In this document: positions 3,004 through 7,859 of the stretch, one piece after another
How the letters are laid out: each line of letters begins with the position of its first letter
Position numbering within the stretch: position 1 is the stretch's first letter
Source: an uncultured archaeon
Lineage (GTDB): Archaea > Asgardarchaeota > Jordiarchaeia > Jordiarchaeales > Jordiarchaeaceae
Assembly: GCA_964510585.1 (NCBI GenBank)
Contig: CAZECW010000007.1
Coordinates: forward strand, 1 to 8,369
Direction of reading: 5' to 3'
DNA: 8,369 bases
The notes under the pieces: generated by a model
Database searches by the model: none
Seen by the model: the letters and a program-made list of their open reading frames with translations, nothing else
What the model was told of the DNA's origin: nothing
Translations under genes and position numbers: made by a program

Positions 3004-3124
3004 TTTTATCACTTTAACTAAAACCATTTTTAACTGTTTTTGACACTAAAAAATTTTCCCACCTTTTTTAATCTTTAGTGTATCTGAGTTTTCCAATTTA
3101 ATGATGAAACCTTTTTGAAGCTTG

Positions 3125-3139
3125 GTAATAATTTATAAG
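3125..3139 (+). promoter_or_regulatory. Putative archaeal BRE+TATA promoter of the thiolase gene
   Basis: GTAATAA followed by TTTATAAG about 40 nt upstream of ATG 3180. GGTGA SD at 3169-3173. Confidence 0.5.
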
Positions 3140-3179
3140 TGTGAACACAACGTATTTTATAGAAAAAGGGTGAGTAAAA

Positions 3180-4349
3180 ATGGTTTCTCCACTTAAGGAT
3201 AAGATAGCAATTATGGGTGTGGGATACACCAAATTTGGAGAATTATGGGACAAAAGCCAAGAAGACCTCATGGTCGACGCAGCATACGAAGCTTTTAACG
3301 ACGCGGGAATAGAACCCAAAGACATAGATGCAATCTGGGTTGGCGTACAATACTTCTTCACAGGACTGTCTGGCGCCACAGCCACAGAACCCCTAAAAAT
3401 TTTTGGAAAACCCGCAACCAGAGTGGAAAACTTTTGCGCCTCAGGAATGGACGCCTTCCGAAACGCCTGCTACGCGGTCTACTCTGGAGACATAGACATT
3501 GCCCTAGCCTGCGGCGTAGAAAAACTCATGGACGCCGGATCCAAAGGACTGCCAGGGTTTGACCAATTTGGACATCCAGTCTATGGCAACGTTTCCGCCC
3601 CAGGAATGTTCGCCCTAATGGCTACAAGAGCGTTCCACAATTGGGAGTGGACTAAGGAGGATTTGGCAAGAGTAGCAGTTAAAAATCACTACAATGGCGC
3701 CGCGCATCCCAAGGCTCACTTCAGAAGGGAAATTAAGATTGAGGATGTTTTAAATGCCCCCATGATTGCTGAACCCTTGGGCAGGTATGACTGCTGCGCT
3801 ATGAGCGACGGAGCCGCGGCACTTATTGTTACACGTCCAGAGATTGCAAAGCAGTACAAACACAAGGACGACTTTGTGGTTTTGAAGGGAAATGGCATGG
3901 CCGTGGAAACCGTTTACCCTTACTATAAACCCAGTTTTGATTTTTCCGAAGTACCAGCAACCATTAAGGCGGCTCAAGCGGCCTACAAGGCTGCAGGAAT
4001 AAAGGATCCAGTCAAAGAGATTGGGTTTGCCGAGGTACACGACTGCTTCACCATAACAGAACTCCTAAATATGCAAGATTTAGGACTATGCAAAAAGGGT
4101 GAAGCTGCCCAACTGGTAAAGGATGGTTTCACCGCTATTGATGGCGAATTTCCAATTAATCCCAGCGGTGGACTCAAATGTTTCGGACACCCAATTGGAG
4201 CCACAGGATGCCGCATGCTGGTTGAAGTCACAAAGCAGATTCAAGGCAGGGCAGATGGACGTCAGGTTGAAAGGAATGAGGTGGGAATGGCCCACAATCT
4301 GGGCGGACCCTACACAGTTTGCACTGTGACTATTCTCGGAAGACCCTAA
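3180..4349 (+). CDS. Thiolase (acetyl-CoA C-acyltransferase), SCP2/archaeal-type, 389 aa
   Basis: N-terminal MGVGYTKFGE, catalytic Cys in VENFCASG, AEVHDCF, NPSGGLKCFGHPIGATG, and C-terminal AHNLGG. Confidence 0.95.
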   Translation: MVSPLKDKIAIMGVGYTKFGELWDKSQEDLMVDAAYEAFNDAGIEPKDIDAIWVGVQYFFTGLSGATATEPLKIFGKPATRVENFCASGMDAFRNACYAVYSGDIDIALACGVEKLMDAGSKGLPGFDQFGHPVYGNVSAPGMFALMATRAFHNWEWTKEDLARVAVKNHYNGAAHPKAHFRREIKIEDVLNAPMIAEPLGRYDCCAMSDGAAALIVTRPEIAKQYKHKDDFVVLKGNGMAVETVYPYYKPSFDFSEVPATIKAAQAAYKAAGIKDPVKEIGFAEVHDCFTITELLNMQDLGLCKKGEAAQLVKDGFTAIDGEFPINPSGGLKCFGHPIGATGCRMLVEVTKQIQGRADGRQVERNEVGMAHNLGGPYTVCTVTILGRP

Positions 4350-4368
4350 AAAACCCATTTAGCTCCTG

Positions 4369-4382
4369 TTTTTCCCTTTTTT
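4369..4382 (+). terminator. Putative oligo(T) terminator of the thiolase gene
   Basis: TTTTTCCCTTTTTT about 20 nt after the stop, in the gap between convergent genes. Confidence 0.4.
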
Positions 4383-4442
4383 AGTAAAAAACTGATAGTA
4401 TATGACTTATTAGGGGGTTTCCCACTAATTTTACGCTTATTT

Positions 4443-4652
4443 TTATTTTTTTGTTTGGCTGGTTTTTTCTGGTTCTTTTTCTTTTATTGGGTTGGGGTTT
4501 ATTTTTTCTGCCAGTTTCTCCCAGTATTCTTCGCCTACAGAGTAGAGTCCGCAGCTTGCGCCGGCTCTGAAGGTGTAGAGGTTTTCAAGTCCCTCCATTT
4601 TTTGTGCGTCTTTTTCTAGTGATGTCTGTGTTTGGGTTTTGGCTTTTTTCAT
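4443..4652 (-). CDS. Small hypothetical peptide B, 69 aa
   Basis: ATG overlaps the upstream stop (ATGA, 4652-4649). Core LYTFRAGASCGLYSVGEEYWEK aligns without gaps to peptide A. Tails are charged and low-complexity. Confidence 0.72.
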   Translation of the reverse strand: MKKAKTQTQTSLEKDAQKMEGLENLYTFRAGASCGLYSVGEEYWEKLAEKINPNPIKEKEPEKTSQTKK

Positions 4653-4870
4653 TTTTGTTCCCTACTGTTTTCTGTTTTCGGTGTGTTCTTTTCTTTTTGT
4701 TCTTCTTTTCTCCACATTTCTTCATAGTAGAAGTATAGGCTGCAGTTTCCGGACATGCAGCAGGGGTAGAGCATATCTGACCCCAGCCCTCGGAGGTCTA
4801 AGTCTAGGGGGTTGTTTTCCTCTGTATTTTCTTCTTTTTTATTTTTCGGGGTTCCCTGCGTTTTTCTCAC
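4649..4870 (-). CDS. Small hypothetical peptide A, ~73 aa (GTG start uncertain)
   Basis: Core LYPCCMSGNCSLYFYYEEMWRK shares a motif with peptide B. BRE/TATA lies about 40 nt upstream. Confidence 0.68.
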   Translation of the reverse strand: MRKTQGTPKNKKEENTEENNPLDLDLRGLGSDMLYPCCMSGNCSLYFYYEEMWRKEEQKEKNTPKTENSREQK

Positions 4871-4911
4871 CAGCTCTTCTCATGCCTGTTCTTTTGGAAA
4901 TGTGTGGGGGG

Positions 4912-4925
4912 ATTAAAAGCTTTCG
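4912..4925 (-). promoter_or_regulatory. Putative archaeal BRE+TATA promoter of the peptide pair
   Basis: Minus strand reads CGAAAG-C-TTTTAAT, a good fit to BRE plus TATA box. Confidence 0.55.
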
Positions 4926-5079
4926 CTTATTTCCTAATTTTAAACAATGGGGTTAAGTCCTCCTAAGCAGCACTCAAGAAGCTAAAAACCACATTTTTAG
5001 AAGGAAGTAACGGGGGCAAGTATTTCTGTTGTTTTTTTTTGTTTGTTTTGCTGTTGGGATTTTGGAGAGGTTGGGTTTT

Positions 5080-5619
5080 TTATGTTCTTAGGGCTTGGAA
5101 GTAGCATGCTCCGTTTTCGGGCATTGTTTGGAGCATGTTTAGTTTGACTTGGAATCCCATTTTGTCAAACACCGTTTGGAGTGCTGATAGGCAAGCGGCT
5201 TTGCAGGGCAATTTTTTAAGCTCCTCTTCGCTTATTAGGTTTTTTAGGGATTGATAAATTTTGCAGTCGTTCTCCGCCACTTTGAAGCTGAGTTCACGGG
5301 CATTGTTTGCCTCTATTTGGACAATTCCCATGAGGTGAACTGATAAGTACGCTATCTCTATGTATCTTTGTGCCACATGAGGAAAGATTAACTCACCGGT
5401 TTTCTTAGCGGCTTCCAATAGGATTTCATATGTTCGGTCACGATATTTGTCCTGGTCGCTTAGTTCCATGGTTCGAAGCATTAGTTGTTTGCCCCACTCT
5501 TCAAAGTCTTGGATGTTTTTGCTCGCAGCATACCTTTTCGCAATTGCCTCCCCATCAAATTCCTTCTCTATCGTTTCAAAGAGTTCATCCTTAATGTAGA
5601 AATCATACTTCTCAGCCAT
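5080..5619 (-). CDS. Hypothetical protein, ~179 aa, with a V4R/ATC-hydrolase-like Cys-containing C-terminal domain
   Basis: Long ORF with ATG 5619 preceded by GGTGA. C-terminal pattern FKV..DCKIY...LPCKAAC...QTMPENGACYF resembles the V4R/ATC-hydrolase fold. The fold call is pattern recognition only. Confidence 0.65.
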   Translation of the reverse strand: MAEKYDFYIKDELFETIEKEFDGEAIAKRYAASKNIQDFEEWGKQLMLRTMELSDQDKYRDRTYEILLEAAKKTGELIFPHVAQRYIEIAYLSVHLMGIVQIEANNARELSFKVAENDCKIYQSLKNLISEEELKKLPCKAACLSALQTVFDKMGFQVKLNMLQTMPENGACYFQALRT

Positions 5620-5636
5620 ACTACTCACCTTCAAGT

Positions 5637-5915
5637 CTATTTTGCAATTTCCTCCGGGGGTTGTATCACTACACTCAAAGCTTTATTGGGGCACACCTCC
5701 ACACACTTCATACAGCCCACACACTTGGGAGTCATAGGCGCTAATAGCAGGTAGGAGCCCGGCTGGTTTTCATCAATAGGCTGATACTTCTTTATCATCA
5801 TAGGGTTAGGCGTAACCAGAAACACCTCGCCCGGACAAACATCCATACACTTCTTGCAAGCAAAGGGTGTGGTACACTTCTGATAATCTATCGTCACCAA
5901 AACCTTACAACTCAT
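5637..5915 (-). CDS. 2x[4Fe-4S] ferredoxin-like protein, ~92 aa
   Basis: C-x5-C-x2-C-x3-CP (CTTPFACKKCMDVCP) and C-x2-C-x2-C-x3-CP (CVGCMKCVEVCP). ATG 5915 is preceded by GGTGA, which overlaps the upstream stop. Confidence 0.9.
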   Translation of the reverse strand: MSCKVLVTIDYQKCTTPFACKKCMDVCPGEVFLVTPNPMMIKKYQPIDENQPGSYLLLAPMTPKCVGCMKCVEVCPNKALSVVIQPPEEIAK

Positions 5916-5920
5916 ACTAA

Positions 5921-6766
5921 TCACCACGAATGTTTAAGCACCTCAAAATTGCGGCGGTTCACAAGTTTAATTGCGCCCCTTTTACATCCCGTTTCACAGA
6001 GCCCACAGCCAAAACACCTGGTTAAATCAATATAGGGAATCCCCTTCCTCACATTAGCTGTGATGGCCCCAAACTGGCAACGGGTAACACACTGAAAACA
6101 TCCATTACACTTCTCAGGATGGGCGAGAGTAGCAACACGCTCCCCCTTCAAAAGCTGCTTCATTCCATAGTCTAATCTCCAGCGAATACTTAGACAATCA
6201 CCATACGTACAATTGCACAATCCTCCAATGTAGGGTGCTCCTTCTCTTAACCCGAATGTCATAAGGGTATGAACCATACCCTTCTTATTCCACTCTTCCA
6301 ACCATTTTTTGGCTTCTTTATCACTAACAAATTCGGCACCAGCAGCATACCTTGAGGGGAGGCGCTCCCACCGAAACATACCCACACCCAACCCCAGGCA
6401 GGTCATCTTTGAACGGTCACGCTCAATGTAGCCGTGAAGCTGCCTACGACAATCACAGGCAATAAAGGCAATGGGACTAGCAAGATCAATCATAGTCTTC
6501 GCATCCTCCAAAGTAATCACCTGACCAGTGTGAATATCCCTCGCCAGTCTATTAAATTTAGCAACATACTCTGGGAATTTCTCGGGATCCAAATTTTTAA
6601 CTTGAAGCGTCTCAAGGGCAAGAGCACCCAACTGAGCCTCAAGATTTGCTCCCGCCCCTTCACCTTTGCGGTCAACCCTTGCACGATGGTACATCTGACG
6701 AGCGTAACGGCTAGCCCACTGATACCAATACTTACCAGTACCATGCTTGGTGCAAAAATCACACAT
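5921..6766 (-). CDS. Uncharacterised multi-Cys 4Fe-4S protein, paralogue A, 281 aa
   Basis: C-terminal CNGCFQCVTRC and CFGCGLCETGC dicluster. Extra motifs MCDFCTKH, ACDCRR, MTCLG, GMVH and CNCTYGDC. Confidence 0.9.
   Translation of the reverse strand: MCDFCTKHGTGKYWYQWASRYARQMYHRARVDRKGEGAGANLEAQLGALALETLQVKNLDPEKFPEYVAKFNRLARDIHTGQVITLEDAKTMIDLASPIAFIACDCRRQLHGYIERDRSKMTCLGLGVGMFRWERLPSRYAAGAEFVSDKEAKKWLEEWNKKGMVHTLMTFGLREGAPYIGGLCNCTYGDCLSIRWRLDYGMKQLLKGERVATLAHPEKCNGCFQCVTRCQFGAITANVRKGIPYIDLTRCFGCGLCETGCKRGAIKLVNRRNFEVLKHSW
6423..6514. repeat. 92-bp perfect direct repeat; second copy at 7388-7479
   Basis: Base-by-base identity (tcaatgtagcc...ctccaaagt), offset 965. Confidence 0.95.
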
Positions 6767-6783
6767 TCCAAAACCACTCCCAA
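6702..6783. repeat. 82-bp perfect direct repeat; second copy at 7673-7754
   Basis: Base-by-base identity (gcgtaacggc...ccactcccaa), offset 971. Covers the 5' coding region plus 17 nt upstream of the ATG. Confidence 0.95.
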
Positions 6784-6885
6784 TAATTTCACATCTAAAC
6801 TATGTCTTTAAATCTTTTAAAATTAAAAAAACAGTGTAAACTTAATAAATAAGGGTTACGGAAGGAGGAAAATTGGTTTAGGGTT

Positions 6886-7737
6886 CTACCAGGAATGTTT
6901 AAGCACTTCGAAGTTGCGGCGGTCCACAAGCTCAATGACTTGACGTTTGCATCCAGTCGCACATAGTCCGCAGCCGAAACACTTAGTTAAATCAATGTAG
7001 GGCTTTTCAGCCCGAATATTAGCAGTAATGGCTCCAAACTGGCACCGAGAAACACATTGAAAACAGCCATTACAGTTCTCAGGATGAGCTATTACAGCCA
7101 CCCTTTCCCCCTTAATGAGCTGCTCTATTCCATAATCGCGACGCCAGCGAATACTTATACAGTCAGCATAGGTACAATTACATAATCCTCCAATATAGGG
7201 CGCCCCATCCCTCAAGCCAAAAGTCATAAGAGAGTGAACCATACCCTTCCTATCCCAAGTTTCTAACCATTTTTTCGCTTCCTTATCACTAACAAAGTGT
7301 ACCCCAGCAACGTATCTTGAGGGTTCCCTTTCCCACCGAAACATTCCCACACCCAACCCCAGGCAGGTCATCTTTGAGAGGTCGCGTTCAATGTAGCCGT
7401 GAAGCTGCCTACGACAATCACAGGCAATAAAGGCAATGGGACTAGCAAGATCAATCATAGTCTTCGCATCCTCCAAAGTTATAACCTGGCCAGAATTCGT
7501 GACTCTTGCCAACTGGTTCACTTTCGCTACCAGCTCCGGAAACTTTTCAGGGTTAAGATTCTTAGCCTGAATCGCCTCAATCGCCGCTAATCCCATCTGA
7601 GCCTCTAATTGTGCAGTGCCTCCTGCCCCAGAAACCTTCCTATCAGTCCTCCTTCGATGGTACATTTGGCGGGCGTAACGGCTAGCCCACTGATACCAAT
7701 ACTTACCAGTACCATGCTTGGTGCAAAAATCACACAT
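6886..7737 (-). CDS. Uncharacterised multi-Cys 4Fe-4S protein, paralogue B, 283 aa
   Basis: Same motifs as paralogue A. Start at ATG 7737 (MCDFCTKHG) matches A, with an identical 17-nt upstream sequence. The 14-aa extension in the ORF track is probably not translated. Confidence 0.9.
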   Translation of the reverse strand: MCDFCTKHGTGKYWYQWASRYARQMYHRRRTDRKVSGAGGTAQLEAQMGLAAIEAIQAKNLNPEKFPELVAKVNQLARVTNSGQVITLEDAKTMIDLASPIAFIACDCRRQLHGYIERDLSKMTCLGLGVGMFRWEREPSRYVAGVHFVSDKEAKKWLETWDRKGMVHSLMTFGLRDGAPYIGGLCNCTYADCISIRWRRDYGIEQLIKGERVAVIAHPENCNGCFQCVSRCQFGAITANIRAEKPYIDLTKCFGCGLCATGCKRQVIELVDRRNFEVLKHSW

Positions 7738-7859
7738 TCCAAAACCACTCCCAAAACCAAGAAGGTTAACAAACACCAAGGATATTAATATAGAGAATAA
7801 CTCATTATTTCTTGTTTAAGATAGAAAATGAGTAGATTTTAATAAGTTTTACCTGTAAT

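Follow-up and report, generated by a model that had tools for sequence, protein, structure and literature searches.

Background

The archaeal mu-proteins, which have been studied in Haloferax, are small zinc-finger proteins that carry C(P)XCG pairs. They resemble the two proteins described here (hereafter named A and B) in that they comprise fewer than 80 residues, are cytoplasmic, contain conserved cysteines and are often restricted to particular lineages; in addition, mu-proteins frequently partner larger proteins. A and B differ from them in the absence of CxxC or C(P)XCG pairs and of any similarity to Pfam, NCBIfam or PDB entries. A second resemblance is to RiPP precursor pairs, such as the two-component lanthipeptides and the sacti- and ranthipeptide precursors, which are likewise encoded by tandem paralogous short genes and contain a conserved segment rich in cysteine. 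In A and B, however, the conserved part is central and does not form an N-terminal leader, the long charged tails are partly under selection, and no maturase, protease or exporter is encoded in the neighbourhoods that were read.

Accessory subunits of Fe-S oxidoreductases provide a third comparison. In NuoB, a subunit of complex I, a CC motif ligates cluster N2. Subunits of this kind share with A the presence of adjacent Cys-Cys residues together with a further Cys, and they are encoded beside ferredoxin-type proteins, whereas A and B show no homology to them and no cluster motif, and a 3+1 Cys site between the two subunits is something that we infer. Finally, the N-terminal extension of yeast Bet3 (TRAPP) shows a local likeness (GEE-x-W-x4-EKIN) to the central part of B.

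The genes for A and B were analysed in a window of 8,369 bp, which is an entire contig of a 3.78-Mb MAG. Close protein homologues are labelled Candidatus Jordarchaeum or Jordarchaeaceae, and matching DNA was found mainly in hot-spring metagenomes.

Results

Organization of the A-B locus

Reading of the minus strand confirmed the predicted pair of ~70-aa ORFs linked by an ATGA overlap. ORF A (positions 4649..4870) encodes 73 aa when read from an in-frame GTG at 4870, or 70 aa from an ACG at 4861-4859, and its TGA stop codon (4651-4649) overlaps the ATG of ORF B (4443..4652; 69 aa). A Shine-Dalgarno-like GGTGA is located 5' of ORF A (4867..4871), and a purine-rich, SD-like AGGGA (4659..4663) lies 6 nt 5' of the ATG of ORF B, with purine runs of the GGGA/GAGG type at the same place in the orthologues. 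The BRE/TATA element and the downstream T-tract that had been proposed to flank the pair were both found where predicted. The former, CGAAA-GCTTTTAAT, reads CGAAAGCTTTTAAT at 4925-4912 of the minus strand. The latter is a T6 tract (4391-4386) situated 52 nt past the stop codon of ORF B, a candidate archaeal terminator; T5-T6 tracts occur 3' of ORF B in all five aligned genomes.

The promoter element AAGCGAAAnnTTTTAAnCC was kept in all the orthologous loci read, including L044, where a different gene separates A-B from the upstream cassette described below, and it is the best-conserved non-coding segment of the A-B locus. About 40 nt downstream of this element there is a GGTGA (in most loci) or a GGTGG (in L044, L046 and L047/L048). 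As judged from these signals, the segment 4925-4386 of the minus strand is a conserved, autonomous two-gene unit that comprises promoter, RBS, ORF A, ORF B and T-tract.

The start codon of ORF A

In the window, the genes encoding a 179-aa protein, a ferredoxin and a thiolase begin with ATG 5-6 nt past a GGTGA. At the same spacing ORF A has an ACG (4861-4859), located 5 nt past its GGTGA. This start position is occupied by ATG in L026 and L027, and by ACG in G000, G001, G004, G005, G002, L044, L046 and L047. Five of the latter (G000, G001, G004, L044 and L047) possess, together with the ACG, an in-frame GTG three codons (9 nt) upstream. ORF A has no canonical in-frame start in G005, G002 and L046, the GTG being out of frame there, and G002 also has an in-frame TGA inside the SD of ORF A. 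The N-terminal tail of A is nevertheless under strong constraint, with a dN/dS of 0.115 in the comparison of G002 with G005, although neither of them has a canonical start. L026 has Thr, and L044 has Lys, in place of the internal Met33, which is therefore not the conserved start of A. As the simplest interpretation, ORF A would have lost its ancestral ATG by a change to ACG, and this ACG, or the GTG where it is in frame, would now initiate translation. ORF A would thus be a candidate for near-cognate ACG initiation in an Asgard archaeon.

ACG starts were also searched for throughout the genome by requiring a GGTGA, a spacing of 4-6 nt, the codon itself and an open stretch of 80 codons or more, and by leaving aside cases with a canonical start close by. 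Two ACG cases were obtained, versus one in the spacing control. This test, which is of low power, provided no general ACG-start signal, and the ACG start of ORF A hence stays a proposal specific to this locus. In a separate count of SD-defined starts throughout genome G000 (GGTGA, 4-6 nt, and a long ORF with an in-frame stop just upstream), 75 ATG, 49 TTG and 16 GTG starts were obtained, TTG being nearly as frequent as ATG.

Coding status and selection

The coding strand of the locus contains 46% A and ~12% T (11.7%), shows an AT skew of -0.5 to -0.64 and is fairly open in each of its three frames. With this composition, the probability of finding 70 open codons is ~0.035. Hence, on such a T-poor strand, ORF length alone is weak evidence for genes.

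Orthologous loci were present in four other genomes of the same genus, with 72-83% nucleotide identity, and in further metagenome contigs (L026, L027-29, L044, L046 and L047/48); the comparison covered ~11 orthologous loci. The pN/pS ratio was calculated on ungapped blocks and summed over ten genome pairs. Values of 0.28 (A) and 0.27 (B) were obtained in the two annotated frames, where no stop codons occurred in the blocks, and values of 0.9-3.3 in four other frames. The mirror antisense frame, whose third positions are common to the coding frame, gave 0.30-0.48 and contained stops. The low ratios and the absence of stops in precisely these two frames indicate that both ORFs are protein-coding and under purifying selection, in agreement with the original prediction that they are real genes with a selected core.

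Selection was unevenly distributed along the proteins. By region, dN/dS was 0.05-0.24 in the core of B, 0 to 0.84 in the core of A and 0.12-0.56 in the N-terminal tail of A, where all the indels are multiples of 3, and was often ~1 or above in the C-terminal tails. The analysis of homologues thus located purifying selection on the core, as had been anticipated. The accompanying idea that the flanks evolve freely held for the C-terminal tails, which change fast, but not for the N-terminal tail of A, which aligns among orthologues and is constrained, nor for ORF B, in which the conserved block extends beyond the core through EKINPNP.

It had also been suggested that annotation pipelines would miss these genes. 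This proved incorrect, since both are called in the NCBI annotation of a MAG as adjacent hypothetical proteins (QXS27_01595 and QXS27_01600), and they are also present in JGI and Logan gene calls; A and B are therefore already annotated in related MAGs. Two public runs labelled METATRANSCRIPTOMIC yielded contigs that match DNA runs of the same study in coding as well as non-coding stretches (window 3100-6000). Both runs probably contain DNA, and for this reason they are unusable as a measure of the expression of A and B.

The shared core and the properties of the proteins

Residues 34-55 of A and 25-46 of B align without gaps, and the residues L, Y, C, L, Y, E, E, W and K are identical, giving within the window the motif L-Y-x7-C-[SG]-L-Y-x3-E-E-x-W-x-K. 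Shuffling of A and B gave nine identities per 22 residues in 23 of 2000 trials and, with K, E, Q, T and N disregarded, six identities in 3 of 2000, which makes the match within the window moderately improbable. The core was kept in all orthologues of both paralogues, where its family form is L-Y-x7-C-x-L-Y-x3-E-[ED]-x-W. This invariance indicates that the match between A and B is not due to chance, and the gapless paralogous core that had been described for the pair was thereby corroborated.

In A, the core (L34-K55; 4706..4771, minus strand) contains invariant cysteines C37, C38 and C43 as well as invariant Y and W residues, and the elements D-x-L-Y-P-C-C, G-[NS]-C, L-[YF]-F-Y-Y-E and W are invariant among the orthologues. 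In B, the conserved block (E23-P55; 4488..4586, minus strand) includes the core L25-K46, and the invariant elements are E-N-L-Y, F-[RK]-A-G-x-S-C-G-L-Y-S and W-E, with C34 as the only invariant cysteine. A has therefore a CC-x4-C arrangement and B a single Cys, so that neither chain alone can form a four-Cys site. The two CxxC or CPxCG knuckles per chain that are typical of a zinc-finger or rubredoxin-type layout are absent from both proteins; the ferredoxin motif CxxCxxCxxxCP is also absent, and no Fer4 match was obtained.

Both proteins are soluble, highly charged and highly hydrophilic (A: pI 5.5, GRAVY -1.6; B: pI 8.7, GRAVY -1.2), with tails rich in K, E, Q and T, and neither of them contains a hydrophobic stretch of membrane-spanning length. 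AF2 models were built from shallow alignments and had a low overall pLDDT (58-60). The model of A contained a helix at residues 44-62, with pLDDT 76-83 in this block and low-confidence tails, and that of B consisted of one long helix (pLDDT 58) and was uninformative. The predicted helix may carry an aromatic stripe formed by L/Y, Y and M/W in A, and by Y, W, L and I in B. Co-folding of A with B gave a score of 0.02, which gives no verdict either way.

Distribution of the A-B family

A profile of the core shared by A and B was used across Asgard genomes. Both proteins were found in five out of six genomes of a single genus (Jordarchaeum/Freyarchaeum), which includes a closed chromosome of 3.58 Mb that bears the annotation Ca. 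Freyarchaeum deiterrae. None of the 394 other Asgard genomes, sister family included, contained a credible match. Weak DNA matches in the sister family (G006, G008 and G009) were discarded, since the protein-profile search found nothing there. When 1.84 billion representative proteins were searched exhaustively with HMMER, five true matches were obtained, all of them A or B orthologues of 51-125 aa from the same clade; no relatives from outside this clade and no fused or longer forms were present among them. Three weak matches to long repetitive proteins (P0013-P0015) were treated as false; P0014, the one that was read, is a simple tandem repeat.

Neither protein was assigned to a family in Pfam-A, NCBIfam, PADLOC or PHROGs at E<=0.1. 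No Rfam match at E<=1 was found anywhere in the window, and the ESM Atlas provided no usable match for B. Profile searches against PDB sequences returned non-significant matches only, to the Bet3 N-terminus (E 0.1-1.2) and to a repeat protein. The former, a possible Bet3/TRAPP or V4R fragment, spans 19-21 residues with E values of 0.096 (core profile) and 1.2 (B profile) in a PDB-sized search, and was treated as chance similarity. As far as these searches reach, A and B constitute an orphan family confined to the Jordarchaeum/Freyarchaeum genus. This agrees with the earlier impression that the family was not a recognised one: no curated family was found, and the core profile returned members of the same genus only.

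Pairing of A with B

All the loci read (G000, G001, G004, G002, G005, L026, L027-29, L044, L046 and L047/48) carry both A and B, and the ATGA overlap is retained in most of them. In L027 the overlap is missing and the ORFs are separated by a 30-nt gap, and in L047 ORF B starts at a GTG one base past the stop codon of A. In the closed genome G005 (L006, ~1795-1830) an A8 run in the part of ORF B that encodes the N-terminal tail is the site of a frameshift; the frame of the ATG stops after nine codons and the core continues in another frame. This frameshift may represent a homopolymer sequencing error, a real change or disruption of the gene, or slippage at the A run.

The neighbouring Fe-S cassette

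Upstream of A-B, and in the same orientation, there are genes for two paralogous proteins, each with 16 Cys and a 2x[4Fe-4S] domain at the C-terminus, as well as for a ferredoxin of the 2x[4Fe-4S] type and for the 179-aa protein. They include a three-gene cassette (5080-7779, minus strand) made up of a ~270-283-aa 16-Cys protein starting with MC[DQ][FW]C, a ferredoxin and a ~180-aa protein with conserved Cys residues. The Fe-S proteins contain only ferredoxin-type 2x[4Fe-4S] domains, and no match to a radical-SAM or SPASM family was obtained for them. The 179-aa protein had no match in Pfam, NCBIfam or PDB sequences; an ESM feature search pointed, weakly, to clusters of the ATC_hydrolase, DUF6125 and TRAPP types. 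The true start of its gene is likely the ATG at 5619, which is preceded by a GGTGA 5 nt upstream, and not the TTG at 5634. The upstream Fe-S paralogue likely starts at the ATG at 7737 (minus strand). This gene and that of the 281-aa paralogue at 6766 share their first codons and the 17 nt preceding them without any difference, in agreement with gene conversion.

An orthologue of the 179-aa gene is located directly upstream of A-B in the four other carriers of the same genus (4/4; 73-93% identity), and also in L026, L027-29 and L048. In L044 (4799-5950) a gene for a 383-aa membrane protein is inserted between the cassette and A-B, and the A-B promoter is retained; the product of this gene is a multi-pass membrane protein that has a soluble domain at its C-terminus and matched no Pfam family. 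On the downstream side, the neighbour of A-B is a thiolase gene (G000, L027, L044 and L047/48), a methyltransferase gene (G005), a GDSL lipase gene (G002 and L046) or a luciferase-like gene (L026). The downstream side has been rearranged at least four times, and the upstream link to the cassette persists. Genome G003 (97% completeness) contains only a 37%-identical paralogue of the 179-aa gene and cassette, and no A-B. A co-occurrence of the pair with the genes at 5080-7737, for which a test had been suggested, was observed for one copy of the cassette, which A-B follows and with which it is jointly missing from G003.

The cassette itself has a wider distribution. Several Asgard families possess it, and the genome from which the window derives has paralogous copies (C8 and C24); the cassette is found without A-B in paralogous copies within the same genus and in MAGs that carry the label Helarchaeota or Promethearchaeota. 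In the five different A-B neighbourhoods read, genes of the radical-SAM, YcaO, lanthipeptide, protease or exporter type were absent.

Discussion

The combination of strict co-occurrence, translational coupling and homologous cores suggests that A and B act as a heteromer. The lasting upstream link, which has survived rearrangement of the downstream side, and the joint absence of A-B and of the corresponding cassette copy from G003 suggest in turn a role together with the cassette. The reading to which we lean, tentatively and at somewhat less than even chances, is that an A:B heteromer is a lineage-specific accessory of the adjacent cassette, with a shared 3+1 Cys site or a redox relay. According to this proposal, translation of A would begin at the SD-defined ACG, or at the in-frame GTG 9 nt upstream, and A and B would be made in coupled amounts and associate through their homologous cores, each of which would form a loop with Gly and Cys and, after it, an amphipathic helix with aromatic residues, while the K/E/Q/T-rich tails would stay disordered. 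The heteromer would serve the 16-Cys Fe-S protein, the ferredoxin and the 179-aa protein. The three cysteines of A and the one of B could supply four thiolates to a single shared metal or Fe-S site; alternatively, thiol, Tyr and Trp residues might constitute a redox-active relay. The functions originally considered included those of a mini-protein that binds a metal or cluster and of a small subunit belonging to the Fe-S module, and either would fit the synteny and the invariant cysteines.

Several observations argue against an accessory role. The cassette exists without A-B, and in L044 a gene insertion separates the two. A-B has its own promoter and hence is not simply a part of the cassette operon. 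Since all the carriers of A-B belong to one genus, its synteny with the cassette may have been inherited rather than selected. Adjacent Cys-Cys pairs, moreover, rarely both bind one metal, which counts against the 3+1 site. The most specific form of the proposal, namely a heterodimeric mini-metalloprotein with a 3+1 Cys centre that is a genus-specific add-on to a widespread Asgard cassette and whose A subunit is translated in several lineages from an SD-positioned ACG, is, in our estimation, improbable as a whole.

The chief alternative explanation, which we regard as doubtful while giving it serious weight, is that A and B are unrelated to the cassette. The core would then be a fold-on-binding motif for some other partner (a protein, a nucleic acid or a membrane surface), and the present position would simply be the birthplace of a young gene pair. 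The strongly conserved promoter, which L044 retains even where A-B is separated from the cassette, is consistent with such independence, as are the restriction of the family to one genus, the K/E-rich composition and predicted disorder of most of each protein, and the wide occurrence of the cassette without A-B. What weighs on the other side is that the upstream link to one particular cassette copy has outlasted at least four downstream rearrangements, and that the genome of the same genus lacking that copy (G003) lacks A-B as well. In addition, A and B contain invariant cysteines, which in an anaerobe are usually a sign of metal or redox chemistry.

The original prediction also considered modified-peptide precursors. 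If A and B were RiPP precursors, either the Fe-S proteins of the cassette or an enzyme from another locus would crosslink the Cys, Tyr and Trp of the core, and the tandem paralogous small genes, the Cys/aromatic core and the adjoining Fe-S proteins would be explained. The search for an associated maturase was negative in the five neighbourhoods, however: the Fe-S neighbours are of the ferredoxin type only, with no radical-SAM/SPASM match, and no YcaO, lanthipeptide synthetase, peptidase or exporter gene accompanies A-B, and this lack of peptide-modifying enzymes among the neighbours argues against a precursor role. Furthermore, the conserved segment lies centrally between charged low-complexity tails, which does not correspond to a leader-core layout, and the N-terminal tail of A is itself under purifying selection. 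This function is therefore considered very unlikely.

The last explanation, that the ORFs stay open by chance in a spacer rich in A and poor in T and that the motif derives from a DNA-level repeat or an RNA element, has the 11.7% T of the coding strand and its three fairly open frames in its favour, but is effectively refuted, as far as comparative sequence data go, by the concentration of substitutions at synonymous sites of exactly these two frames, the absence of stops in the orthologues, the stops or ratios of ~1 or more in other frames, the lack of an Rfam match and the presence of SD sites at gene-like spacing.

Conclusions

A-B represents a verifiable, lineage-restricted pair of Asgard small proteins that is selected, duplicated, apparently coupled in translation and provided with a promoter of its own. 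The family is narrow; the pair adds lineage-specific, Cys-containing archaeal small proteins, encoded beside redox genes and belonging to no known family. The change from ATG to ACG at an SD-defined start, with three lineages in which no canonical alternative is available, offers a test case for near-cognate initiation in archaea. If A and B bind the neighbouring Fe-S proteins, they would provide a handle on a cassette that is found in several Asgard classes.
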